DNA from: Chloroflexota bacterium
GTDB lineage: Bacteria > Chloroflexota > Limnocylindria > Limnocylindrales > CSP1-4
Reading direction: 5' to 3'
DNA: 64,000 nt
NCBI GenBank assembly: GCA_012026785.1
Contig: VEOW01000115.1
Location: 3,495-67,494 of the forward strand
In this document: positions 7,314-45,233 of the stretch, one piece after another
Position numbering within the stretch: position 1 is the first letter of the stretch
How the letters are laid out: each line of letters begins with the position of its first letter
Notes under the pieces: model-generated
Told to the model about the DNA's origin: nothing
Database searches by the model: none
Seen by the model: the letters and a program-made list of their open reading frames with translations, nothing else
Translations under genes and position numbers: made by a program

Positions 7314-8101
7314 CCGACATCCTGGCCGACCTCGACGCAGGCCGGCGCCGAGCGGCCTCACCGGATCGGGCGGCCACCGCCGGCTGGCGGGTCGACGCGA
7401 GCGTCAAGGCGGAGATCCTCGAGCTGTTCGACCGTGGTGGCGATCGGACCTTCGAGGTCGGCCCGCTGGCGTTCGCCGATCGCGCCTCACTGCCGCTCAA
7501 GCGCCTCCATGACGGCGTCGACGCCAGGGCCGCCCGGGATGCCGGGCGGCCCTGGCGGATCGTGCCCGGCGGGACGAGCCTCCGGGCCGGCGCGCATCTC
7601 GAGCCCGGCGGCGTCGTCATGCCGCCGTCGTTCGTGAACGTCGGCGCCTGGATCGGCGCCGGCACGATGATCGATTCCCACGTCCTGGTCGGCTCCTGCG
7701 CCCAGATCGGGGCGCGCGTCCACCTCGCCGCGGGCGTCGTGATCGGCGGCGTGCTCGAGCCGCCGGGGGCACGGCCGGTCATCGTCGAGGACGACGTCTT
7801 CGTCGGTGGCGGCTGCGGGCTGTACGAGGGCGTGCTGGTCGGACGGGGCGCCGTCCTCGCGGCCGGCGTGACCCTGACCGGGACGTCACGGCTGTTCGAC
7901 CTCGTCCGCGAGCGGGTCATCGAGGGGACAGCCGACGCGCCGCTGGTCGTGCCCGAGCGGGCCGTCGTCGTGCCCGGCACCCGCGCCGTCGACGGGAGCT
8001 TCGGCCGCGAGCACGGCCTCGGGGTCGCGACGGCCCTGATCGTCAAGGACCGCGACGCGGGCACCGATGCGCGGGTCGCGCTCGAGGCGGCGCTCCGGTG
8101 A
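7310..8101 (+). CDS. dapD: tetrahydrodipicolinate N-acyltransferase (DapD/DapH family, hexapeptide-repeat)
   Basis: GTG start overlapping the dapA stop (GTGA). Left-handed beta-helix hexapeptide repeats (VGAWIGAGTMIDSHVLVGSCAQIGARVHLAAGVVIGGVLEP). Confidence 0.8.
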   Translation: MTDILADLDAGRRRAASPDRAATAGWRVDASVKAEILELFDRGGDRTFEVGPLAFADRASLPLKRLHDGVDARAARDAGRPWRIVPGGTSLRAGAHLEPGGVVMPPSFVNVGAWIGAGTMIDSHVLVGSCAQIGARVHLAAGVVIGGVLEPPGARPVIVEDDVFVGGGCGLYEGVLVGRGAVLAAGVTLTGTSRLFDLVRERVIEGTADAPLVVPERAVVVPGTRAVDGSFGREHGLGVATALIVKDRDAGTDARVALEAALR

Positions 8102-9456
8102 GCGCCCTCCGTGCATCCGCGCCGGCAACCCGCGGCCGGCCGGCCGCCACCGACGCGCCGCGCCGGGGCCGTCCGCCGGCCCGCAACGAGATCCTGCGCG
8201 CAGGTCGCCTCGGCGGCCTGGAGCCGGAGAACCTGGCACGGCGTTTCGGGACGCCGCTGTACGCCTACGACCTCGGCGTCGTCGATCGGCAGGTCGCCGC
8301 GCTGCGGGCCGTCCTGCCGCCCGGCTTCGAGCTGGCCTACGCGGTCAAGGCCAACCCGGCGCTGGCGGTCGTGCGCCACCTCGCGCGCCGCGGCCTGGGT
8401 GCGGATGTCGCGTCGGGCGGGGAGATTGAGGCGGCGCTCCGCGCCGGGGTGTCGCCGGCGACGATCGTGATGACCGGGCCCGGCAAGCGCGATGACGAGC
8501 TGGTGCTCGCGGTCCGGACCGGGCTCCGGGCGATCACCGTCGAATCGCTCGGCGAGCTGGAACGGCTCGAGCGAGTCGCGGCCCGGGAGGGGCGGGTCGT
8601 GCCGATCCTGCTTCGAGCCGCCGTGTCGCCCGAGGTCGCGCTGGAGCGGGTCCGGCTCGTCGGCGACGACGGGGCCGGGAAGTTCGGCATGGCCGACGAC
8701 GATCTCCGGCTCGCTGCGCGGCGGGCCGCCCGGTCGGCCCACCTCGAGCCCCTTGGGATCCACGCCTTCGGTGCCTCGAACGTCGTCGACGCGGAGGCCC
8801 TGGCCCGCCATGTCGAGCGAACGGTCGAGCGGGCACGAGCGGTTGCCGCGGAGGCGGGGTTCACGCTTCGGCTCGTCGACGCGGGCGGCGGTCTCGGCAT
8901 TCCGTACGAGCCCGAGGATCGGGAGCTCGACCTCGCCGCGCTCGGCCGCCGGCTGCGCTCGATCAGGAACCGCCTGGAAGGGGATGCGACCACGCGGGAC
9001 GCCCGCGTGCTCCTCGAACCTGGCCGGTTCCTCGTCGGTCCGGCTGGCGCCTACCTGGCCCGGGTCGTCGATCGCAAGTCCGTCGACGGCGCCCACGTCG
9101 TGATCCTCGACGGCGGGATCCACCACCTGCTGCGCCCGGCCCTGGTCGGCCAGGAGCACCGCATCCGGACATTCGGATCGAACGGCGGACCGAGGCCGAA
9201 GGCCTTCCCGGTCACCGTCGCGGGGCCGCTCTGCTCCGGCCTCGACGTGCTCACGTCCCAGGCCGTGATGCCGCCGCCGGCGATCGGCGACTTGGTCGCA
9301 GCCCTCGACGTCGGCGCCTACGGCTTCACCGAATCGATGCCGTTTTTCCTATCGCACCCGACCCCCGCGGAGGTCGTCATCAGCGACGGCGAGGCCAGGC
9401 TGGCCCGGCGACGGATCGAGCCACGCGAATGGCTCGCGATGCAGGAGGTCCCGTGA
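8098..9456 (+). CDS. lysA: diaminopimelate decarboxylase
   Basis: PLP-fold motifs YAVKANP, GGGLGIPY and CSGLD. ATGA overlap with dapD. Confidence 0.9.
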   Translation: MSALRASAPATRGRPAATDAPRRGRPPARNEILRAGRLGGLEPENLARRFGTPLYAYDLGVVDRQVAALRAVLPPGFELAYAVKANPALAVVRHLARRGLGADVASGGEIEAALRAGVSPATIVMTGPGKRDDELVLAVRTGLRAITVESLGELERLERVAAREGRVVPILLRAAVSPEVALERVRLVGDDGAGKFGMADDDLRLAARRAARSAHLEPLGIHAFGASNVVDAEALARHVERTVERARAVAAEAGFTLRLVDAGGGLGIPYEPEDRELDLAALGRRLRSIRNRLEGDATTRDARVLLEPGRFLVGPAGAYLARVVDRKSVDGAHVVILDGGIHHLLRPALVGQEHRIRTFGSNGGPRPKAFPVTVAGPLCSGLDVLTSQAVMPPPAIGDLVAALDVGAYGFTESMPFFLSHPTPAEVVISDGEARLARRRIEPREWLAMQEVP

Positions 9457-9495: not shown

Positions 9496-11067
9496 ATGCA
9501 GGGTCGCGTGGAGAATCGGCGAGGCGAGGGCCGTCGCGAGCGTCGTGAGCGCCGCGCGGCGGCGGGGGTTCCCCGGCTGCCGTGGCGCCGGATCGTCAAC
9601 CCGTTCCCGCCGCTCGAGATCCTGAGCGTCGATCAGCTCGAGACGATCCACCAGGCGGGGCTCCGGATCCTGCGCGACATGGGCGTTGAGGTTCTCGGCG
9701 GGCGCGCTATCGATCACTTCGAGCGAGCCGGGGCGAGCGTCGAGCGAGAGGGCGACGTCGCCGGCCGCGGGGCGGCCGGGCTGGTCCGACTCGAGCCCGC
9801 CCACGTGGAGGAGCTGGTCGCCAGGGCGCCGTCGCGCTTCGAGCTGTTCGCCCGCAACCCCGATCGAAACCTCGTCTTCGGCGATCGCCACCTCGTCTTC
9901 GGAGCCGTCGGCGGCCCGGCCTTCGTGACCGACATCGACCGTGGCCGGCGGGCCGGCAACTTCGAGGATTTCGAAGCCTACGTCCGCCTGATCGGCGCGC
10001 TCGACGTCATTCACCAGGAGGCCGGCGGACCGCTCGAGCCGACCGACCTGCCGGTCGAGACGCGGCACCTCGACATGTACCGGACGCTGGCCACGACGCT
10101 CGACAAGACGTGGCAGTGCCTGGCCTACGGGCGCGAGACCGTGGACGATGCGATCGAGATCGCCTGCCTGGCGCGCGGGGTCAACCGCGAGCAGCTGGTG
10201 CGCGAGCCGAGCCTGATGACGATCGTGAACACCAACTCGCCGCTGCGCCTCGATGGCCCGATGTCCGAGGGGCTGATCGAGATGGCGACCTGGGGCCAGC
10301 CGGTCGTCGTGACCCCGTTCACGATCTCCGGCGCGATGGCGCCCGCCACGCTCGCCGGCGCCCTCGCCGAGCAGCACGCCGAGGCGCTGTTCGTCGTCGC
10401 CCTCGCCGAGATCGTCCGACCCGGGACGCCGATGATCTACGGCGGCTTCACCTCGAACGTCGACATGCGGACCGGCTCGCCGGCCTTCGGCACGCCCGAG
10501 TACGTGAAGGCGCAGCTCGCCAGCGGCCAGCTGGCCCGGCGGGTCGGGCTGCCGTTGCGCTCGTCGAACGTCACCGGCTCGGCGGTCGTCGATGCCCAGG
10601 CGGCGTACGAGAGCGAGATGTCGATCTGGGGGGCGATGCTGGCCGGCGCAAACCTGCTGTACCAGGGCGCGGGCTGGCTGGAAGGCGGCCTCACCGCGTC
10701 GTTCGAGAAGCTGATCCTCGACGCGGAGCTGCTCCAGCAGATGGCGCTGGTGCTCGAGCCGATCGCGGTCTCGGACGACGAGCTGGGGCTCGATGCGATC
10801 GCCGAGGTCGGCCCCGGCGGCCACTTCTTCGGGGCGGCCCACACGCTGGCGAGGTTCGAGACGGCCTTCTACCAGCCGATGCTCTCGGACTGGCGGAACT
10901 TCGAGACGTGGCGCGACGACGGCGCTCGGACTGCGACCGAGCGGGCGAACGCCATCTGGAAGCGACTCCTGGCCGAGTTCGAGCCGCCGCCGCTCGATCC
11001 GGGCACCGCCGAGGCCATCGACGCCTTCGTCGAGCGTCGGAAGCGCGAGATCGTGCCCGGCGGGTAA
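9496..11067 (+). CDS. MttB-superfamily (trimethylamine-methyltransferase-like) methyltransferase, non-pyrrolysine type
   Basis: 523 aa with an Arg-rich N-terminus, a GPGGHFFGAAHT motif near the C-terminus and overall MttB-family similarity. There is no in-frame TAG. Confidence 0.75.
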   Translation: MQGRVENRRGEGRRERRERRAAAGVPRLPWRRIVNPFPPLEILSVDQLETIHQAGLRILRDMGVEVLGGRAIDHFERAGASVEREGDVAGRGAAGLVRLEPAHVEELVARAPSRFELFARNPDRNLVFGDRHLVFGAVGGPAFVTDIDRGRRAGNFEDFEAYVRLIGALDVIHQEAGGPLEPTDLPVETRHLDMYRTLATTLDKTWQCLAYGRETVDDAIEIACLARGVNREQLVREPSLMTIVNTNSPLRLDGPMSEGLIEMATWGQPVVVTPFTISGAMAPATLAGALAEQHAEALFVVALAEIVRPGTPMIYGGFTSNVDMRTGSPAFGTPEYVKAQLASGQLARRVGLPLRSSNVTGSAVVDAQAAYESEMSIWGAMLAGANLLYQGAGWLEGGLTASFEKLILDAELLQQMALVLEPIAVSDDELGLDAIAEVGPGGHFFGAAHTLARFETAFYQPMLSDWRNFETWRDDGARTATERANAIWKRLLAEFEPPPLDPGTAEAIDAFVERRKREIVPGG

Positions 11068-25648: not shown

Positions 25649-26917
25649 TCACATCGCCGCCGCGGCCGGCAGTGACAGCACGAATCGCGCGCCGTGCCCG
25701 TTGGCCGGCTCGCACCACAGCCGCCCTCCGACCGAGTCGGAGAGACGCCGGGCAGCGTACAGCCCGATCCCGGATCCGCGGGCGGTCCGCGTCTCGCGAC
25801 GGGCGTACGGTTCGAAGATCCGTTCCCGCCACTCCTCGGGGATCCCCGGTCCCTCGTCGCTGACCGAGATCCGGATCGAGCCCTCGGCCATCCGCCAGTC
25901 GAGCGTGATCGTCGTCTCGGGCGGGGCGTACTTCACGGCGTTCTCGATGAGGTGCTCGAGGATCTGGCGGAGTCGGGCAGGGTCGGTCAGCGCGAAGTGG
26001 CGAATGCCGCCGCGGATGTCGACGCGATGCCGCGACGTGAGCGGCTCCAGCTCCGCGGCGGTCTCGGCGACGATCGCCCCGACGTCGGGCGGCTCGAGCT
26101 CGGCCGCCTGCTCGGGCGCGACCCGCACCGAGGCGAGAATCGAGTCGACCAGCCGATCCAGCCTCGAGACCTGGTCCATCGCGCCGCGATACCAGGCCGC
26201 TCGCCGCTCTCGGCGGTCCGGATCGCGTGACGAGCGGCCGTCGAGCGGCGGCTCCTCGGCCAGCAGGTCGGCGTAGGCGCGGACGACGGCGAGCGGCGTC
26301 CGCAGCGCGTGGGTCACGAGCGCGATGAGCTCGGCGCGAGCCTCGTCGAGGGCCTTCAGCTCTGCTGCCCGCGCCTCGGCCTCGCGCTGCAGGCGGCCCT
26401 TCTCGACGATCCCCGCGAGCAGGTCGGCGATCGCGCCGAGGTGGACGACGTCCGAATCGCTGAACTCGCGGTGGCGGTCGGTCTGGACGTTGAGCACGCC
26501 GACTGTTCGGTCGTTCCAGATCAGCGGCACCGACAGCATCGAGGCGATGAACCGCTTCTGGTCGATGCCACGGACCCACAGGAAGCGCTTGTCGCTCGGC
26601 ACGTCGTAGATCACGATCGGCTGCTTCGTCGCGGCGACCCGACCCGTCACGCCCTCGCCGAACGGCACCCGCGCGCGACCGATCTGGAAGCGGTCGAGCC
26701 CATTCGTGGCGGCCAGCGTGAGGTTCTTGCCGTCTCGGTCGACGAGGTACAGCGACGAGACGGTTGCCCGGAGCGCATCGCGGGTCTCGTCGACGACCGT
26801 TTCGAGCAGCTCCTCCCACGTCGTCGCGGTTGTCGCGAGGCGGGCGACGCGGTGGAGGAACCGCAGCTGGTCGAGCTGCTCCTCGGCGCGCGTGGGCGGA
26901 TCGAGCTGCTGGGTCAC
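25649..26917 (-). CDS. GAF-domain sensor histidine kinase (start uncertain)
   Basis: GAF region (LYLVDRDGKNLTLAATNG...GVTGRVAATKQPIVIYDV), HisKA H-box THALRTPLA and HATPase N/G boxes (ENAVKYA, DEGPGI, GSGIGL). GTG at 26917 (MTQQLDPP) chosen. The 977-aa track ORF runs antisense through gltB. Confidence 0.7.
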   Translation of the reverse strand: MTQQLDPPTRAEEQLDQLRFLHRVARLATTATTWEELLETVVDETRDALRATVSSLYLVDRDGKNLTLAATNGLDRFQIGRARVPFGEGVTGRVAATKQPIVIYDVPSDKRFLWVRGIDQKRFIASMLSVPLIWNDRTVGVLNVQTDRHREFSDSDVVHLGAIADLLAGIVEKGRLQREAEARAAELKALDEARAELIALVTHALRTPLAVVRAYADLLAEEPPLDGRSSRDPDRRERRAAWYRGAMDQVSRLDRLVDSILASVRVAPEQAAELEPPDVGAIVAETAAELEPLTSRHRVDIRGGIRHFALTDPARLRQILEHLIENAVKYAPPETTITLDWRMAEGSIRISVSDEGPGIPEEWRERIFEPYARRETRTARGSGIGLYAARRLSDSVGGRLWCEPANGHGARFVLSLPAAAAM

Positions 26918-27019
26918 CCATTCACGATAGCCGAGGGTGGCCTCGCAACCGAATCGCACCTCGAACGCCACCTCGCGGCCGTCGTCCGTTGGGACCCCGC
27001 CAATTGACACTGCGAAGGT

Positions 27020-31666
<4,647 letters not shown>

Positions 31667-37624: not shown

Positions 37625-38594
37625 GCCGAGTCTTCCACGCCGGTGTCGCCGGTCAGCTCCAGGTACCGTTCCTCGAGGCTCGCCGACCCGCTCCGGAGCT
37701 GCAGGATCAGGAGCCCCTCCCGAGCCGCCCAGCTGGCGACCGTGGCGATCGCGTCGGCCGCCTGGAGCCCCGGTGCGATGGAGAGCTCGTTCGTCCGGCC
37801 CTCATCCACGGCGACGGGTGCGGGCGATCCGGGAGCGAGGGCCCGGCCGAGCCGGGCGAGGGCCGCGGGCTCGGGCGCGGCGTGGAGCCGGACGCGAATG
37901 CCGGCCGTGCCCGCATCGGCCATGAGGGCGGCCGGCGCGCCCTCGGCCAGGATCCGACCCGACGCCAGGATCACGACCCGGTCGGCCAGCTCCTCGGCGT
38001 CGGCGAGGTCGTGCGTCGTCAGCAGGATTGCCCGCCCCTCGGCTCGAAGCCGCTCGATCAGCGCCCGGGCGCCGCGTCGCGCCTCGGGGTCGAGGCCGGC
38101 CGTCGGCTCGTCGAGAATCAGCACCTCGGGATTGCCGACGAGCGCGATGGCGAGCGCGAGGCGCTGACGCTCGCCGCCCGAGAGCCGCCGGATCGGACGA
38201 GCTGCGACGGTCTCGAGGCCGACCGAGGCCAGGAGCTCGTCGGGATCGTGGCCACCCTCGTGCAGTGCCGAGAAGAGCCGCAGCGATTCTCGCGCCGTTG
38301 CTCGCGGCTGGAGGCCCTCCCCGCCCTGCAGCATGAACCCGACGCGCGCCCGCAGCGCCGCCCCACCCGCTCGGGGCTCCCGGCCGCGCACGCGGACCGC
38401 CCCGCCGTCGGGGGTTCGATAGCCCTCGATGATCTCGACCTCGTCGTCTTGCCGGCACCGTTCGGACCGAGGAGGGCGACGAGCTCGCCAGGCCGGACCG
38501 CGAGATCGATCCCGTCGAGGACGGTCCTGCCGCCGTAGCGCTTGACGAGCCCCGCGACCTCGATGGCCGCGGGCGCGAGGGCCGCCTGGGTCAC
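37621..38594 (-). pseudogene. ABC transporter ATP-binding protein interrupted by a -1 frameshift (about 38445-38450)
   Basis: N-terminal part (GTG 38594; VKRYGG, Walker [10 protein letters not shown]) sits in one frame and the rest ([25 protein letters not shown]-loop TTHDL) in another. Restoring one C in acgacga(c)ggtcgag gives the continuous [26 protein letters not shown]. Confidence 0.7.
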
Positions 38595-39064
38595 GAATCG
38601 GGCGCGATCAGCGCGTACTGGCGCTCGAAGTCGGCGTCGGTGACCTCGCCGACCTGGATGGCTCGAAGGATCCCCGCCGGGTCGATGAAGTACGTCTGCG
38701 GCCGCGCGGCCACGCGGTACGCGCGCCGAATGGCGCCGTCGGGGTCGTCGACCGTCGGCCAGGTTGCGCCCATCTCGGCGATGAAGTCTCGAGCCGGCGC
38801 GACCGGGTCGAACGTCAGGATTCCGACGATCGCCAGGCCGTCCTCGGCATGCTCGGTGAGCTTCGACTTGAAGAGCGGGAACTCGTCCCGGCAGGGCACG
38901 CACGACGGGCCCCAGAAGTTGAGGATGACGGGACGACCGCGCAGCGACGCGAGATCGAATGAGTCGCCGTCGAGGGTCGTCCCGAGGACCGCCGGCGCGG
39001 CCTGGCCCTTGGCGATGAGCCCGGATTCCGAACTGCCCGGCCCACACGCCACGAGGGCGAGCAA
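38591..39064 (-). CDS. TlpA-family thiol-disulfide oxidoreductase (thioredoxin fold, CxxC), probable lipoprotein
   Basis: WGPSCVPC active site. Lipobox-like LVAC right after a TTG start. The in-frame upstream sequence encodes the rest of a signal peptide ([26 protein letters not shown]) but has no canonical start codon. Confidence 0.7.
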
Positions 39065-39168: not shown

Positions 39169-40251
39169 CTACCGGACGATCAGCGTCCCGGTCATCGCGG
39201 GGATCGGATGGACGGAGCAGATGAAGACGTATTCACCGGCTTCGAGCGGGGTGTACTGGTAGATCTGGGATTCTCCGCCCTCGGTGTGCGGCGTGTCCTG
39301 CAGCACCCCGCCGCCCCCGTCGCGGATGTCGATGTCGTGCGGGACCGACGGAGGGTCCTCGTTTCGAAGCTCGATCGCGAACGGCTCGCCGGCAGGGACC
39401 TCGATCTCGTGGGTGTCGAAGGCGATGTCCTTGGCGACGACGATGATCGTCCCGGGTGGCGCACTGGCCTGGCCGCTTGGCGCCGGCGAACCGCCGGGCC
39501 CGCCGGCCGCCTCGTCGGGGCCCTGGATCGGCAGGATTCCGAGCTGGAACAGGCCAACGAGCACGAACGCCACGGCGAACAGCTGCAGCCAGGTCGCCGG
39601 CCAGCGTTTCGGGGGCGGGTTCTCGAGGTGGCCGGTCGCGTCGGCCTCCTCGACCTTTCGATACTCGGCCGTGAAGTCGCCGAGCCAGCCGACGAGCGTC
39701 CAGGTGAGGAAGACCGCGGCCAGCACGAGGACCCAGCCGCCGAAGACGAGGCCGGCCATCAGGGCAAACGCCCCGAGGGAGGCGAGCAACGGGCGGATCG
39801 ATGGCCCGGGCATGTGGACGCCCGGTGGGGGTCCCTCGTGGACGACCGCCGGCAACGCCGTCGGGGACTCCAGGCGGTCGTATTCGCGAACCGCCTCCCG
39901 GCCCCAGACGAGCATCGTGGCGATGAGGAGGACAACGCCGATCCACAGGAATGCACCGCCGGCCACGAGCCCGAAGAACAGGGCCCCGGCGCCGAGGGCG
40001 ACGAGGATCGGGGACGCCGATGGACCGGGCATGTGGAGGTGCCTCGGCGTGACCGGCGTCACCCGCGCCGGCGCCCGGCGCGTCGGGCCGGCGGTCGCGA
40101 AGCGTCGGATGGTCCAGCCGAAGTACAGGAGCACCAGGAGCGCCAGCAGCAGCGGGATGCGGGCGACCAGCTCGCTCCAATCGGGGGTGATGAACGTTGC
40201 CGCGAGGTCGAGCAGCGTCTGCACCAGGTCCTTCGGCGCCTCGGTCTCCAT
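39169..40251 (-). CDS. polytopic membrane protein with internal tandem repeat and C-terminal type-1 copper (plastocyanin-like cupredoxin) domain
   Basis: Two repeats of about 55 aa (HMPGPS-x2-P-[IL]L[VA]-x-LGA-x-AL...GLV-x-GG...EY[DR][RK]), each with two TM helices. C-terminal domain has H (PHDIDI), C-x2-H-x4-M ([11 protein letters not shown]). Its end is identical to the CoxB C-terminal domain. Confidence 0.7.
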
Positions 40252-40281: not shown

Positions 40282-40479
40282 CTACTCGCCCGGCTCGGAC
40301 GGCCCGGTGTGCAGCACGAAGGCCATGATCCCGAGGGCCACGCCAAGGGCGAACAGCATCGTCACGCCGGCCCACTCAACGTGGTAGCCGAGGACCGGCG
40401 CGAATGCCGCGTAGGCGATCGCGATCAGGATCGTGCCACCTGCGATCAGGCCGGCGATGAGGTTCCTGCTCAGGAGCAT
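40282..40479 (-). CDS. small two-TM membrane protein, putative oxidase subunit IV
   Basis: 65 aa, two hydrophobic helices, located immediately after ctaE in the operon. Assignment by position only. Confidence 0.4.
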   Translation of the reverse strand: MLLSRNLIAGLIAGGTILIAIAYAAFAPVLGYHVEWAGVTMLFALGVALGIMAFVLHTGPSEPGE

Positions 40480-40492
40480 CCGAGCCTCGCGC

Positions 40493-41134
40493 TTACAGGA
40501 GGTAGAGGACCGAGAAGAGCACGATCCACACGACGTCGACGAAGTGCCAGTACAGCGAGACCGCCTCGACCGCGTCGTGATGGCGTGACGAGAACTGGCC
40601 GAGCATGCCGCGGTACAGGATGACGCCGAGCATCAGGACGCCGCCGAAGACGTGCGCGCCGTGGAAGCCGGTCAGCGTGAAGTAGGTCGTTCCAAACGCA
40701 CCGGAGCCCATCGTCAGGCCCTCAGAGAACAGGATCGAGTAGTCGACCGCCTGCAGGCCCAGGAAGATCACACCGAGTACGAAGGTGACGGTGATGTTGC
40801 GAATGAACCCGGTCCGGTCGCCGCGCCGGATCGACCACACCGCGAACTGGCAGGTGAACGAGCTGGCGACGAGGATGATCGTCGCCACCAGGATCAACGA
40901 CAACGGATCCAGCAGTCCCTGGAACTCGGCCGGCGGCCACGGCTGGTTGGCGGCCCGTGTCGCGAAGTAGGCGGCGAACAGGCCCGAGAAGAACATCACC
41001 TCCGAGGTGATGAACAGCAACATCCCGAGGACGGGATTGCTGATGCCCCGGCTCGCGGCGTGGCCGGCGACGGCCGTCCCGTGCGAGGCGCCGTGGGCCT
41101 CGCTCGCGGCGACCGCGCGACTCTCGGCGGTCAT
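40493..41134 (-). CDS. ctaE: cytochrome c oxidase subunit III
   Basis: Heme-copper oxidase subunit III motifs (FITSEVMFF, GFHGAHV, LYWHFVDVVW). ATGA overlap with ctaD. The 780-aa track ORF is an upstream artefact. Confidence 0.85.
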   Translation of the reverse strand: MTAESRAVAASEAHGASHGTAVAGHAASRGISNPVLGMLLFITSEVMFFSGLFAAYFATRAANQPWPPAEFQGLLDPLSLILVATIILVASSFTCQFAVWSIRRGDRTGFIRNITVTFVLGVIFLGLQAVDYSILFSEGLTMGSGAFGTTYFTLTGFHGAHVFGGVLMLGVILYRGMLGQFSSRHHDAVEAVSLYWHFVDVVWIVLFSVLYLL

Positions 41135-42894
41135 CGCTTCGTCTCCAGGTCCTCGCCGGTCGTCGTCTGCTCGCCGACGCCGGCCTCGTCGTCGGGGGCC
41201 GCCGGGACCTCGCCTGACGGCGCCGGCTGCTCCAGCAGGGCCGGCCCGGGCTCCGGCTCCCCGTGCCCGACGAGCCCATGGCGGGCGTCGAACAGCGGCC
41301 GTTCGGAGCGGATCTCCGGGAGGCGGTCGAAGTTGTAGGGCGGCGGCGGCGAGGTGGTGGCCCACTCGAGGGTGTTGCCCTCCCACGGGTCGTTGCCGGC
41401 GACCTTGCCGTTCCGGAGCGAGACGAAGACGTTCCAGATGAACGGCAGCATCGATAGCCCGATGAGGAAGCCACCGATCGTGGCGACCAGGTTCCAGTCG
41501 TTCCAGCCGGCCCCGCTCGCGTAGTCGGCAATCCGCCGCGGCATGCCCTTGACGCCAAGGATGTGCATCGGGAAGAAGGTCAGGTTGAAGCCGATGAACA
41601 TCAGCACGAACTGGACCTTGCCGAGGCCCTCGTCGAGCATTCGACCGGTCATCTTCGGGAACCAGTAGTAGATGCCGGCGAAGACCCCGAACGCCGAGCC
41701 GCCGAACAGCACGTAGTGGAGGTGCGCGACGACCCAGTAGGTGTCGTGGAGGGCGAAATCGACCGGCACCGAGGCGCTGAAGGCGCCGTTGATGCCGCCG
41801 ATCAGGAACATCGTCAGGAAGCCGACCGCGAACAGCAGCGGCGTCGAGAACGTCAGCTGGCCGCGGAACATCGTGAAGACCCAGTTGAACATCTTCACGC
41901 CGGTCGGGACCGCGATCAGGAACGTCATCAGGCTGAAGAACGGCAGGAAGACCGCGCCGGTCGTGAACATGTGGTGGGCCCAGACCGAGAAGCCGAGTGC
42001 CCCGATCCCGGCGGTGGCGAAGACGAACGCCTTGTAGCCGAACAGCGGCTTCCGGCTGAAGACCGGCAGGACCTCGCTGATCACGCCCATCGCCGGCAGG
42101 ACCATGACGTAGACCGCCGGGTGGGAGTAGAACCAGAACACGTTCTGGTACAGGACGGCGATGCCGCCGCTTTCGGGGTTGAAGAACGAGCCGCCGAGGT
42201 TGCGGTCGATGTACAGCATCACGATCGCGCTGGTGATCACCGGCGTCGCCATCACGACCAGGATGCTCGTGACCAGGACGGTCCAGACCATGATCGGCAT
42301 CCGGAACAGGGTCATCCCGGGGGCTCGCATCTTGAAGATCGTGACGAGGAAGTTGATGCCGCCGAGGATCGAGCTCGTGCCGATGAGGACCAGCGACGCG
42401 ATCCACAGGTCCTGCCCGGGGCCGGGGGACGCGAGGGGGCTGTTCCCGGCAAGCGGCGGATAGCTCGTCCAGCCCGCGGCGGCCGCGCCGCCGGGTGTCA
42501 GGAAGCCCATCAGCAGCAGGATCCCGCCGAGCGGCAGCATCCAGAACGACAGGGCGTTGATGCGCGGGAACGCCATGTCCGGCGCACCGATCATGAGCGG
42601 GACGGCGAAGTTCCCGAGCCCGGCCAGCATCGGGATGATGAACAGGAAGATCATCACCGTCGCGTGGATGGTGAACGACTCGTTGTAGACGTGCTCGTTC
42701 TGGAACAGCTGCAGTCCCGGTGCCGCCAGCTCGGCCCGGACGAGCAGTGCGAAGATCCCGCCAATCAGGAAGAACAAGAACGAGTTGATGACGTAGAGGA
42801 TCCCGATCTTCTTGTGGTCGGTCGTCGTCAGCCACTCGTAGAGGCCGCCGCGATACCCGGCGACGGCGGCGGGGCTCAGGGCGTGGGTGGCCAT
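41131..42894 (-). CDS. ctaD: cytochrome c oxidase subunit I
   Basis: 12-TM heme-copper oxidase I with DHKKIGILY, the GGFGN-region equivalent, HHMFT and VAHFHYV-like His ligands. Confidence 0.9.
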   Translation of the reverse strand: MATHALSPAAVAGYRGGLYEWLTTTDHKKIGILYVINSFLFFLIGGIFALLVRAELAAPGLQLFQNEHVYNESFTIHATVMIFLFIIPMLAGLGNFAVPLMIGAPDMAFPRINALSFWMLPLGGILLLMGFLTPGGAAAAGWTSYPPLAGNSPLASPGPGQDLWIASLVLIGTSSILGGINFLVTIFKMRAPGMTLFRMPIMVWTVLVTSILVVMATPVITSAIVMLYIDRNLGGSFFNPESGGIAVLYQNVFWFYSHPAVYVMVLPAMGVISEVLPVFSRKPLFGYKAFVFATAGIGALGFSVWAHHMFTTGAVFLPFFSLMTFLIAVPTGVKMFNWVFTMFRGQLTFSTPLLFAVGFLTMFLIGGINGAFSASVPVDFALHDTYWVVAHLHYVLFGGSAFGVFAGIYYWFPKMTGRMLDEGLGKVQFVLMFIGFNLTFFPMHILGVKGMPRRIADYASGAGWNDWNLVATIGGFLIGLSMLPFIWNVFVSLRNGKVAGNDPWEGNTLEWATTSPPPPYNFDRLPEIRSERPLFDARHGLVGHGEPEPGPALLEQPAPSGEVPAAPDDEAGVGEQTTTGEDLETKR

Positions 42895-42907: not shown

Positions 42908-44017
42908 TCAGCGGACCGTCAGCGTCCCGGTCATCGCCGGGATGGGGTGGACGGAGCAGATGAACGTGTAGGTGCCCGCCGGGAGCGGGTCGTAGGTGTA
43001 GGTGGTGGAGGTTCCGCCGTCGATCGTCGGCTGGTCCTGGACGACGGTGGTGTTGTCGGTCTCGCGGATGTCGGCGTCATGCGGAACGCCGGGCGGGTCA
43101 TTGTTGGCGAACTGGATGGCGAACGGCGTGTCGGCCGGCACTTCCAGCTCGAGCGTGTCGTAGGCGATGTTTTCGGCCGAGAGGGTCAGCGTCGTCGCCC
43201 CGCTCGGCAGCGGCGGCGGGGTGGCGTTCGACTTCTCGATCAGCGCCGCCAGCCAGGCGTCGAAGTCGGCCTGGCTCAGCGCGAGGACGTCGAACAGCAT
43301 GACCCGATGTCCGGTCCCGCACAGCTCGGCGCACTGGCCGCGGTACGTCTGGCCGGCCTCGCTGGGGTCGAGGGTGAACTCGAAGTGGTTGGTCTGCCCG
43401 GGCACGACATCGCGCTTGAAGAGGAAGCGCGGGACGTACCAGGCGTGGATCACGTCGGGGCTGTCGAGGGTCACGTAGACCGTTCGCCCGACCGGGACGG
43501 CCATGCCGCCGCCCTGGTCGGCCACGGGGACGGACTGGGTGGCGAGAACCTGGCCGTTCGCGTCGAGGTACTCGAACTGCCACTGGAACTGGCCGGCCAC
43601 AGCGTGGACTCGAACGTCGGGATCGACGCTCACGGCTTCGATGTTGTTCAGCGTCTGCCACGAGATGACGAAGAGGTACAGGACGATGACCGTCGGGATC
43701 AGCGTCCACAGCACCTCGACGAAGTTGTTGCCGTGAGTCTGCGGCGGCAGGTCGGTGTCGGTCGGCTTCCGGCGGTAGCGGATGATGCTCCAGACGATCA
43801 GGCCCTCGACGGCGACGAAGATCGCGACGGCGATGGCGAAGACGATGTCGTAGAGCGAGGCGATCTCGCGAGCCTGGTCGGTCGCGGGCGCAGGCGGATA
43901 GAGGGCCGACCCGGCTCCGGTCAGGAACACCACGGCGACGACGGCGATCAGGAGCAGAACCACGGCACCCGCCACGAGCGCTTCGGAGGCGGGTTGTTTC
44001 CTGGGACTCGTCGACAT
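42908..44017 (-). CDS. ctaC: cytochrome c oxidase subunit II with C-terminal fused cupredoxin (blue-copper) domain
   Basis: Two N-terminal TM helices. CuA centre HAWYVPRF...CAELCGTGHRVM. Extra C-terminal domain has PHDADI...[18 protein letters not shown] (H, C-x2-H-x4-M) in the place where caa3 oxidases carry cytochrome c. Confidence 0.85.
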   Translation of the reverse strand: MSTSPRKQPASEALVAGAVVLLLIAVVAVVFLTGAGSALYPPAPATDQAREIASLYDIVFAIAVAIFVAVEGLIVWSIIRYRRKPTDTDLPPQTHGNNFVEVLWTLIPTVIVLYLFVISWQTLNNIEAVSVDPDVRVHAVAGQFQWQFEYLDANGQVLATQSVPVADQGGGMAVPVGRTVYVTLDSPDVIHAWYVPRFLFKRDVVPGQTNHFEFTLDPSEAGQTYRGQCAELCGTGHRVMLFDVLALSQADFDAWLAALIEKSNATPPPLPSGATTLTLSAENIAYDTLELEVPADTPFAIQFANNDPPGVPHDADIRETDNTTVVQDQPTIDGGTSTTYTYDPLPAGTYTFICSVHPIPAMTGTLTVR

Positions 44018-44123
44018 GACTCCTCGTGCGGTCGGTCAGGACAAGGGGTCCAACGGGCTGCGCTCGACACCCGCCGGAACAGGACGCGCGTGCTGGCCGA
44101 CCGCGACGGGTCAACCGACCCGC

Positions 44124-45233
44124 ATGATAGCGCGAGGCCGAGATCGCGCGCCGTGCCACCATGACGGGGTGATCTGCCTCTCCTCGTGCCCCGGCCGCGT
44201 CGTCCCCCGGCTCGTCGGGGGCGGCGTTGCCGTCCTCGCGCTGGCCGCGATCGCGGGCCCGGTGGCGGCCCACGGCGGCGCGCCCGACGAGGCGCCGACG
44301 CTGGCGTCGTTCGTGTTCGACTGGTCGTTCGAGCCGCTGGTCGCGATCCCGTTGGTCCTGGCTGCGCTGGTCTGGCTGACCCTCGTCGACCGCGCCGGCC
44401 GACTGCATCCCGGGCACCCGGTCTCGCCATGGCGCACGGCGGCGTTCTTCGGCGGGCTGGCGGCGGTCGCGATGGCCCTCATGTCCGGGGTGGAGGCGTA
44501 CGACACGACCCTCTTCTCGGTCCACATGGTCCAGCACATGCTGCTGACCTTCGCCGCCGCGCCGCTCCTCGTTCTCGCCGCGCCGGTCACCCAGCTGCTA
44601 CGGGCCGCCAGCCCGGAGGTCCGGCGCCGCTGGATCCTGCCGATCCTGCACTCTGGCCCGGTGGCCGTCCTCGGCCACCCGGTGGTCGCGTGGCTGACGT
44701 TCACGGTCGTCATGTGGGCGACCCACTTCTCGCCGCTGTTCGACATGGCGCTCGAGGACCCCTTCCTCCACGACATCGAGCACGCGCTGTTCCTCGGGTC
44801 CGCGCTGCTGTTCTGGTGGCCGGTCGTGGGGGCCGATCCCGGTCCGCGGCGAATGGGCTTCGCCGGGCGGGGCCTGTACCTACTCCTGCAGATGCCGCCG
44901 AACTCGTTCCTCGCGGTCGCGATCCTGATGGCCGGCGCGCCGCTGTACCCCCATTACGCGACACTCGGCTCGCCCTACGGCATCGACCCGCTGGCCGACC
45001 AGCAGCTCGCCGCCGGGCTGATGTGGGTCGTCTCCGACTTCGTGTTCATCGGCGCGATCCTGCTCGTGGTCGCGGCCTGGATGCGCCAGGAGGAGCGGGA
45101 CGCCCCGGCGGTCGAGCGGCGGGTGGAGCGGGAGCGGCAGCGGATCAGCCAGCGGGCGGAGGAGCTCGCTGCCCGGACCGGTCAGCCCGGCGAGCCGTCC
45201 TCGGGCGGCGGCCAGGCGAGCAGGGTTCGGTAG
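44124..45233 (+). CDS. CtaG/caa3-type cytochrome oxidase assembly factor-like membrane protein
   Basis: Signal/TM N-terminus, 7 TM helices, conserved HMVQHML and H-rich loops. Divergent from ctaC. The ATG at 44124 is chosen from several candidates. Confidence 0.6.
   Translation: MIARGRDRAPCHHDGVICLSSCPGRVVPRLVGGGVAVLALAAIAGPVAAHGGAPDEAPTLASFVFDWSFEPLVAIPLVLAALVWLTLVDRAGRLHPGHPVSPWRTAAFFGGLAAVAMALMSGVEAYDTTLFSVHMVQHMLLTFAAAPLLVLAAPVTQLLRAASPEVRRRWILPILHSGPVAVLGHPVVAWLTFTVVMWATHFSPLFDMALEDPFLHDIEHALFLGSALLFWWPVVGADPGPRRMGFAGRGLYLLLQMPPNSFLAVAILMAGAPLYPHYATLGSPYGIDPLADQQLAAGLMWVVSDFVFIGAILLVVAAWMRQEERDAPAVERRVERERQRISQRAEELAARTGQPGEPSSGGGQASRVR

Follow-up and report, generated by a model that had tools for sequence, protein, structure and literature searches.

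Oxidases with a built-in electron carrier are the textbook cases for electron entry at CuA, and the known bacterial examples use heme c. In the caa3 oxidases of Thermus thermophilus (PDB 2yev) and Rhodothermus marinus, which are A-family enzymes with the YS (A2) motif in subunit I, the carrier is a CxxCH heme domain covalently fused after the CuA domain of subunit II. In the actinobacterial bcc-aa3 supercomplex (CtaCDEF and QcrC), the oxidase is obligately associated with QcrABC, and CuA is fed by QcrC, a di-heme cytochrome cc. Copper-based carriers include the auracyanins of Chloroflexus and Roseiflexus, which are free-standing, lipid- or helix-anchored type-1 copper proteins of phototrophic Chloroflexi. 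A passage of PMC10873879 names auracyanins as the periplasmic electron acceptor of alternative complex III (ACIII). In haloarchaea, subunit IIa (CbaD) of ba3 oxidases, a protein with a single helix, carries halocyanin at its N-terminus, as in Halobacterium OE_4073R and Haloarcula; this fusion has been taken as evidence for a cupredoxin as the physiological donor and is listed as uncharacterised (PMC3128077, PMC8305020). Finally, AcoP of Acidithiobacillus ferrooxidans (PDB 7z3b) is a membrane-anchored cupredoxin encoded in an oxidase operon; it is purified together with the oxidase, and a cytochrome can pass electrons to it (PMC5982212).

The locus analyzed here, part of a 64-kb window (the whole stretch of DNA studied) from a bacterium of the Chloroflexota class Limnocylindria, shares features with each of these systems. 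Similar to caa3, the enzyme belongs to the A-family, has the YS (A2) motif in subunit I, carries a putative one-electron carrier domain of about 110-120 aa covalently fused after the CuA domain of subunit II, and is accompanied by an adjacent gene for the Caa3_CtaG assembly factor. Unlike in caa3, a type-1 cupredoxin takes the place of the CxxCH heme domain as the carrier, separate genes encode subunits I and III, and a second carrier is tethered to a subunit-IV-like protein. With halocyanin-CbaD it shares a blue-copper domain attached covalently to a membrane subunit of a heme-copper oxidase. However, the haloarchaeal fusion concerns an archaeal B-family enzyme, in which the copper domain is N-terminal to a single helix and lies off the CuA subunit, while the Limnocylindria enzyme is bacterial and A-family, with its copper domains at the C-termini of subunit II and of a six-helix protein, i.e. 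neither B-family nor N-terminal to subunit IIa. The auracyanins are comparable in phylum and as membrane-tethered type-1 copper domains, but the Limnocylindria cupredoxins sit in larger polypeptides instead of being free-standing single-domain proteins, and no ACIII genes were found near the operon, either in the window or in related loci. AcoP is likewise a membrane-bound cupredoxin encoded within an oxidase operon. The resemblance to bcc-aa3 consists in the similarity of CtaD, the PF12270 subunit IV element, and two covalently attached carriers in series with no soluble carrier gene nearby; in Actinobacteria, however, the carriers are hemes and belong to complex III (QcrC), whereas in Limnocylindria they are copper domains that belong to the oxidase.

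A covalently attached carrier (caa3) and a blue-copper donor fused to an oxidase subunit (haloarchaea) are therefore already known. New are the placement of the type-1 domain on the very subunit II of an A2-type oxidase from a bacterium, the second tethered cupredoxin on a subunit-IV-like protein, and the conservation of this two-cupredoxin arrangement across the whole class. No description of a subunit II-cupredoxin fusion was found in the full-text literature, including recent Limnocylindria genomics, in a search that lay mostly outside subscription journals. We believe that the ctaC-fused cupredoxin probably acts as a fixed entry to CuA that replaces the caa3 cytochrome c domain, and that the tethered cupredoxin probably acts as a captive shuttle.

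The ctaC-cupredoxin fusion and its distribution

The fusion gene and the parts of its product are located as follows:

42908..44017, minus strand: ctaC-cupredoxin fusion gene, 369 aa, ATG start, continuous ORF
43277..43618, minus strand: CuA domain, residues ~134-247, with ligands H191, C229, E231, C233, H237 and M240, and Trp146 in QFQWQFEY
43196..43228, minus strand: linker NATPPPLPSGA, residues 264-274, Pro/Ala-rich and conserved
42911..43195, minus strand: C-terminal type-1 copper (cupredoxin) domain, residues 275-369, with ligands H313, C354, H357 and M362

The product consists of an N-terminal anchor helix (residues 14-32), two COX2 transmembrane helices, the CuA domain, the linker and the type-1 copper domain, in this order. 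Pfam analysis placed COX2_TM at residues 42-120 and COX2 at residues 140-241, and the two-helix anchor and the periplasmic cupredoxin-fold domain (PF02790 and PF00116) are both present. A preliminary description of the locus had recognized a normal CuA centre followed by a domain with a complete set of type-1 copper ligands, and both observations are borne out. The CuA pattern His...Cys-x-Glu-x-Cys-x3-His-x2-Met is complete and all six ligands are invariant in an alignment of 54 homologues. The same alignment shows Trp146 to be invariant, a residue which we take, from alignment by eye, to correspond to the electron-entry tryptophan of Paracoccus subunit II. Regarding the C-terminal domain, H313 (within PHDADI) was found in 46/46 aligned CtaC-fused domains, and C354, H357 and M362 (within an 11-residue stretch, arranged as Cys-x2-His-x4-Met) in all 44 that are not ended by a contig edge; the type-1 ligands are also invariant in the 54-sequence alignment.

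The domain has the Greek-key beta-sandwich fold and the ligand order of an N-terminal His followed by Cys-x2-His-x(2-4)-Met in a C-terminal loop. The HMM search that had been suggested as a check placed it above the cut-off of two families, Cupredoxin_1 (PF13473; residues 265-368, E 2.5e-10, 40.8 bits vs. a cut-off of 27) and Copper-bind (PF00127, the plastocyanin/azurin model; 23.2 bits vs. 21.2). Its nearest solved relatives in both sequence and structure are the auracyanins (PDB 2aan, 1ov8, 6kol), at an identity of only ~22-28% and with a weak match (E 3.7e-6). Cupredoxin_1 also includes non-redox copper-binding domains, e.g. those of EfeO and FtrB, which are close structural matches; this observation runs against the entry and shuttle functions.

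A frameshift or an assembly error had been raised from the outset as a possible origin of the fusion, and a gene-calling error might likewise have joined a separate plastocyanin-like gene to ctaC. Such errors do occur in this gene set, since some error-prone assemblies show the operon in pieces with apparently free cupredoxin genes. In the window, however, the ORF is continuous, its codon bias is uniform along its length, and its GC3 of 0.92 is typical for genes in this 70% GC window. Searching 5.8 billion proteins with the fusion gave 2805 homologues, and the best 120 of these (365-376 aa) match 100% of the query at 68-96% identity with an identical three-domain architecture. Furthermore, among 185,579 species genomes scanned, 45 loci matched the fusion over its full length (41-89% identity). 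The same architecture is thus seen in over 100 independent metagenome proteins of different sources and in 45 genome loci, with a conserved linker of fixed length, and an artefact is effectively excluded. The fusion is genuine.

Nearly all of the 45 loci are labelled Candidatus Limnocylindrales/Limnocylindria or unclassified Chloroflexota. Three carry the labels Patescibacteria, Deferrimicrobiaceae or Dormiibacterota, and these were read as probably misbinned contigs because they are 68-89% identical. Apart from them, the fusion is restricted to the Chloroflexota class Limnocylindria among the 45 genome loci. The survey of CoxB homologues proposed in the preliminary description thereby qualifies its statement that the fusion is rare: it is phylogenetically restricted, but it is abundant in absolute terms. 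Public annotations of the fused proteins read only 'cytochrome c oxidase subunit II', 'plastocyanin' or 'cupredoxin domain-containing protein'.

Oxidase type and replacement of the cytochrome c domain

Directly downstream of the ctaC fusion lie the genes for subunits I and III:

41131..42894, minus strand: ctaD, heme-copper oxidase subunit I, 587 aa (Pfam COX1, E 1.8e-162)
40493..41134, minus strand: ctaE, subunit III, 213 aa (Pfam COX3, E 2.2e-40)

The ATG of ctaE overlaps the stop codon of ctaD (ATGA). Subunit I belongs to the A-family, and its motif FWFYSHPAVY has Tyr-Ser for the helix-VI Glu, with YSHP in place of GHPE; following the established classification, we take this to be the A2 signature of the Thermus and Rhodothermus caa3 type. 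Overall, CtaD is closest to actinobacterial CtaD (mycobacterial/corynebacterial; E 1e-199), with mycobacterial proteins as its best PDB matches, and then to Thermus caa3 (E 1.6e-158), and the core of CtaC is closest in sequence to subunit II of Thermus caa3 (2yev_B, E 5e-34). Heme a in both heme sites requires CtaA and CtaB. The label 'aa3' given in the preliminary description is provisional, since heme a synthesis genes (COX15-CtaA, UbiA) were not found in Pfam scans of ~45 window genes.

The preliminary description had pointed out that the position of the fused domain is occupied by cytochrome c in caa3-type oxidases, and the nearest relatives confirm it. The comparison covered the CtaC ORFs of the 33 closest homologues that lack the fusion, which represent Anaerolineales, other Chloroflexota, Thermoleophilia, Acidimicrobiia and further groups. 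Behind the CuA motif, 27 of the 33 have a ~120-residue tail with a single CxxCH ~50 residues in, i.e. the caa3 arrangement, while the remaining six have no tail. Among the Limnocylindria CtaC sequences, 42 have an equally long tail that contains a type-1 copper motif, and two are ended by contig edges; a cytochrome c domain is absent from 42/42 complete sequences, and the CtaC fusion of the window likewise lacks CxxCH, the mark of the C-terminal mono-heme domain of caa3 subunit II. Because the nearest homologues outside Limnocylindria mostly carry a CxxCH tail of the same length at the same position, the fusion is, as judged by sequence comparison, a clean domain swap, with a cupredoxin in place of the cytochrome c tail of a caa3-like A2-type oxidase.

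A second cupredoxin and its operon neighbours

The preliminary description did not include a second cupredoxin fusion that our analysis revealed in the same operon. It is encoded together with further conserved genes:

39169..40251, minus strand: subunit-IV-like membrane protein with a second type-1 cupredoxin, 360 aa, six helices and two HMPGPS hairpin repeats
39448..39537, minus strand: tether of this protein, residues 239-268, flexible and Gly/Pro/Ala/Ser-rich
39172..39447, minus strand: second type-1 cupredoxin domain, residues 269-360, with H305, C345, H348 and M353
40282..40479, minus strand: small membrane ORF with two hydrophobic segments, 65 aa, candidate extra oxidase subunit
38591..39064, minus strand: TlpA/ResA-like extracytoplasmic thiol-disulfide oxidoreductase (Pfam AhpC-TSA/Redoxin) with a CVPC motif and an LVAC lipobox-like N-terminus
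44016..45233, plus strand: Caa3_CtaG oxidase assembly factor, divergent from ctaC (Pfam PF09678, E 9.1e-72)

The 360-aa protein contains two stretches of Cyt_c_ox_IV (PF12270; 30.6 bits vs. a cut-off of 26.9), the family of actinobacterial subunit IV (CtaF-type), and ends in Cupredoxin_1 (E 2.4e-11). It has 1506 database homologues and was present in every fused locus extending far enough, while caa3-type relatives do not have this architecture. The ligands of its cupredoxin are invariant in 34-35 of 35 homologues. In the AF2 model the protein has six membrane helices and a cupredoxin with a pLDDT of 97, and Foldseek matched the fold of the domain to amicyanin, auracyanin and plastocyanin. Both cupredoxins of the operon share the plastocyanin-like Y-x-F-x-C-S-x-H context and the axial Met.

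At 63% identity (tblastn), the second cupredoxin is a paralogue of the ctaC-fused domain. The identity of the two copies within a genome (54%) exceeds the cross identity between genomes (47%), the ctaC-fused and subunit-IV-fused domains are not cleanly separated in an NJ tree, and the last 55 nt of both copies are almost identical at the DNA level. These patterns give only a hint of gene conversion between the two copies, since the domain is short and GC3 is 0.92.

The two copper domains of CtaC and the cupredoxin of the subunit-IV-like protein are located on the outer (P) side of the membrane, a topology based on hydropathy and charge distribution (positive-inside rule). The segments that connect the cupredoxins to the rest of their proteins are rather different. 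The CtaC linker has a fixed length of 10-11 residues with a mean majority fraction of 0.91 among 54 homologues, is conserved in divergent loci too, and is predicted by AF2 with a pLDDT of 81-88. In contrast, the subunit-IV tether varies between 26 and 39 residues, has a majority fraction of 0.64 and is predicted to be disordered, with a pLDDT below 50 for residues 243-261 (AF2). Given that the linkers contrast in length variation, conservation and predicted order, we read the ctaC-fused domain as held fixed beside CuA and the subunit-IV domain as mobile on a leash.

Concerning the other neighbours, the 65-aa ORF was found by tblastn at the same position in 34 related loci and belongs to no Pfam family. 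The CtaG gene is conserved in 42 related loci and the TlpA-like redoxin gene in 33. By analogy with the known role of Bradyrhizobium TlpA, the latter is likely to be the reductant for the copper-site cysteines during assembly. Promoter and terminator scans of the operon gave nothing usable.

Electron supply and the wider cupredoxin family

In the proposed electron path, the ctaC-fused domain would be the permanent entry site, and electrons would pass from its type-1 copper to CuA, then to heme a, to heme a3/CuB and finally to O2. The tethered cupredoxin would collect electrons from a quinol-oxidising complex encoded elsewhere and hand them to the fixed domain or directly to CuA. Copper occupancy of both domains, the path and direction of the electrons and the division of labour between the domains are what we infer from this architecture.

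The preliminary description had reported no cytochrome c near the operon, and this can be extended to the whole 64-kb window, where CxxCH occurs in no ORF supported by codon bias. The ~45 window genes scanned with Pfam include transporters, amino-acid metabolism, PEP carboxylase, glutamate synthase, a ferredoxin and regulators; Rieske protein, cytochrome b and ACIII were not found among them, and there are no qcr genes in the window. In the flanks of the 45 related loci, motif scans detected no Rieske motif and a single CxxCH ORF, a number at chance level. As neither the window nor these flanks offer a candidate, the donor to the cupredoxins is encoded elsewhere.

It could be argued that the main donor to the oxidase is a cytochrome c, soluble or anchored in the membrane, whose gene lies elsewhere, and that the cupredoxins form a side branch (e.g. 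to a copper nitrite reductase or a dehydrogenase) or serve as donors under low iron. The coverage of 64 kb of the genome leaves room for such a cytochrome, in some relatives a single operon encodes both a cytochrome c domain and multi-cupredoxin proteins, and P0270, on a contig of 1.7 kb, is a cytochrome c-cupredoxin fusion of the same domain family, which can therefore partner with c-type cytochromes. Nevertheless, this explanation seems unlikely to us when set against the absence of a cytochrome c domain from all 42 complete Limnocylindria CtaC sequences, the absence of CxxCH proteins from the window and, apart from one chance-level case, from the flanks of the 45 loci, and the covalent attachment of two carriers, which suggests a main route.

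The domain family extends well beyond the operon. An exhaustive HMMER search with the domain alone against 1.84 billion cluster representatives returned 1487 proteins at E <= 1e-3, and 342 of these also reached E <= 1e-10. Simple motif rules, which undercount variant copper loops, were applied to 144 of the best matches listed: 66 proteins carry two to five type-1 sites in tandem, 53 are small and have a single domain, six clusters are fused to CtaC and five to subunit IV, and 14 fall outside these groups. One protein, P0357, matched the cupredoxin-domain query in six stretches. Two tri-cupredoxin membrane proteins are encoded in oxidase operons of other lineages, between CtaG and a TlpA-like redoxin, and one of these operons still encodes a CtaC with a cytochrome c domain and has genes for cytochrome c maturation ahead of it. 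The recurrent linkage to oxidase operons ties the domain family to terminal oxidases, and the position among assembly genes leaves room for a biogenesis role of the tethered copies. A description of this multi-cupredoxin membrane protein family of oxidase operons was not found in the literature.

A search with a short query also returned many 'plastocyanin' proteins of 90-160 aa, i.e. candidates for free-standing homologues. The two that were examined on long contigs proved to be fragments of the same operon in frameshifted assemblies, and such proteins were for this reason not counted as free genes.

The second cupredoxin gene adjoins the TlpA-like redoxin, and in other lineages cupredoxin genes also adjoin CtaG, an arrangement that is compatible with biogenesis and does not favour the entry and shuttle reading. 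It has to be considered whether the cupredoxins, and especially the tethered one, carry no electrons but act in copper handling or assembly, through delivery, storage or redox maintenance for CuA/CuB. Consistent with this are the location of the second cupredoxin gene directly upstream of the redoxin gene, the tri-cupredoxins found elsewhere between CtaG and redoxin in caa3 operons that retain the cytochrome c domain, structural neighbours that include the copper chaperone CupA and the cupredoxin domains of FtrB/EfeO, and the fact that AcoP was first described as stabilising oxidase activity. However, both domains have the complete and invariant His/Cys/His/Met set, with the axial Met and the Y-x-F-x-C-S-x-H context, while to our knowledge the known copper chaperones use other ligand sets. 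Moreover, the ctaC-fused copy occupies the exact position, and has the size, of the electron-entry cytochrome c domain of its relatives. We therefore regard a role confined to copper handling or assembly as improbable.

The interpretation of the fused domain as a copper electron-entry module, already put forward in the preliminary description, is supported, and its function we infer. Extending the entry and shuttle reading to the respiratory chain, we tentatively suggest that Limnocylindria may possess an all-copper, cytochrome-c-independent link from quinol oxidation to O2 reduction, in which a captive cupredoxin would shuttle from a complex III equivalent to the cupredoxin beside CuA. Such a link would correspond to the di-heme cytochrome cc bridge of Actinobacteria, with copper in place of heme, possibly within an obligate supercomplex.

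The operon represents a natural and widespread alternative to heme c as the built-in carrier of an oxidase, and a broader family of multi-cupredoxin membrane proteins linked to oxidase operons can be flagged. If the proposed function is true, the fusion would provide a defined system for electron transfer from type-1 copper to CuA within one polypeptide. The discussion of copper-based respiratory chains has so far centred on haloarchaea, Sulfolobales, ammonia-oxidising archaea and phototrophic Chloroflexi; such chains would then extend to a class of uncultured bacteria that is abundant in soil, groundwater and freshwater. This would also point to iron being traded for copper in the energy metabolism of these organisms, which would affect how their distribution is read with respect to metal availability. 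Should the all-copper link also hold, Limnocylindria would have a bacterial iron-sparing respiratory chain of covalently wired blue-copper domains.

The second cupredoxin fusion and its copper-binding loop

The oxidase operon encodes a further fusion between a subunit-like membrane protein and a copper domain, located downstream of ctaC:

39169-40251 (-), subunit-IV-like protein with a second type-1 cupredoxin domain

The membrane part of this protein comprises six helices and a pair of hairpin repeats (HMPGPS) of the type seen in actinobacterial subunit IV, and is joined to the cupredoxin by a disordered linker of ~30 residues. This fusion and the ctaC fusion are kept together throughout the Limnocylindria. 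The preliminary description of the region did not mention the second fusion.

Comparison of the two cupredoxins revealed that their final ~55 nt (42911-42965 in ctaC and 39172-39226 in the subunit-IV-cupredoxin gene, both on the minus strand) have almost the same nucleotide sequence and encode the copper-binding loop (15 residues), while the remainder of the two domains is divergent. Furthermore, identity between the two domains within a genome exceeds that across genomes. Together with the near-identical 3' ends, this pattern may reflect gene conversion, a reading confounded by the extreme GC3 bias.

Multi-cupredoxin and cytochrome c relatives

Members of the family of the ctaC-fused domain were also found in other architectures:

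L080 (locus of another lineage) 1293-2636, membrane-anchored protein with three tandem type-1 cupredoxin domains
L082 (locus of another lineage) 8001-9329, membrane-anchored protein with three tandem type-1 cupredoxin domains
L081 (contig) 578-1444, P0270, cytochrome c-cupredoxin fusion of 288 aa

Both tri-cupredoxin proteins belong to caa3-type oxidase operons of other lineages, in which they are flanked by CtaG on one side and a TlpA-like redoxin on the other. Relatives in the representative library have between two and six domains in tandem; a literature search found no account of such multi-cupredoxin proteins. In P0270 the cytochrome c domain is N-terminal and the cupredoxin C-terminal, on a contig too short for its context to be read.

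Operon copies in other assemblies and additional genes of the window

Copies of the operon 68-89% identical to that of the window are present on L001, L005 and L018. These contigs come from MAGs labelled Deferrimicrobiaceae, Patescibacteria and Dormiibacterota and are probably misbinned Limnocylindria sequence. In some assemblies (L084, L085) the operon is in pieces, with COX1 in two parts, CtaC likewise broken and the cupredoxin predicted as a small gene of its own. Such breakage is a source of false database records of free 'plastocyanin' proteins.

Elsewhere in the window lie:

9496-11067 (+), MttB-family (trimethylamine methyltransferase-like) gene, full-length Pfam match (E 2.9e-187)
25649-28582 (-), GAF histidine kinase, mechanically listed ORF
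27020-31666 (+), glutamate synthase large-subunit gene

Peptide and ABC transporter genes adjoin the MttB-family gene. The listed kinase ORF shares ~1.5 kb with the beginning of the glutamate synthase gene; given that its kinase domains start only at residue 587, translation probably begins well downstream of the listed ORF start.

A small membrane ORF within the operon

Between ctaE and the subunit-IV-cupredoxin gene lies a small ORF:

40282-40479 (-), 65-aa ORF, apparently unannotated, with two hydrophobic helices

It matched no Pfam family, its position is unchanged in 34 related loci, and it may encode an extra small subunit of the oxidase.
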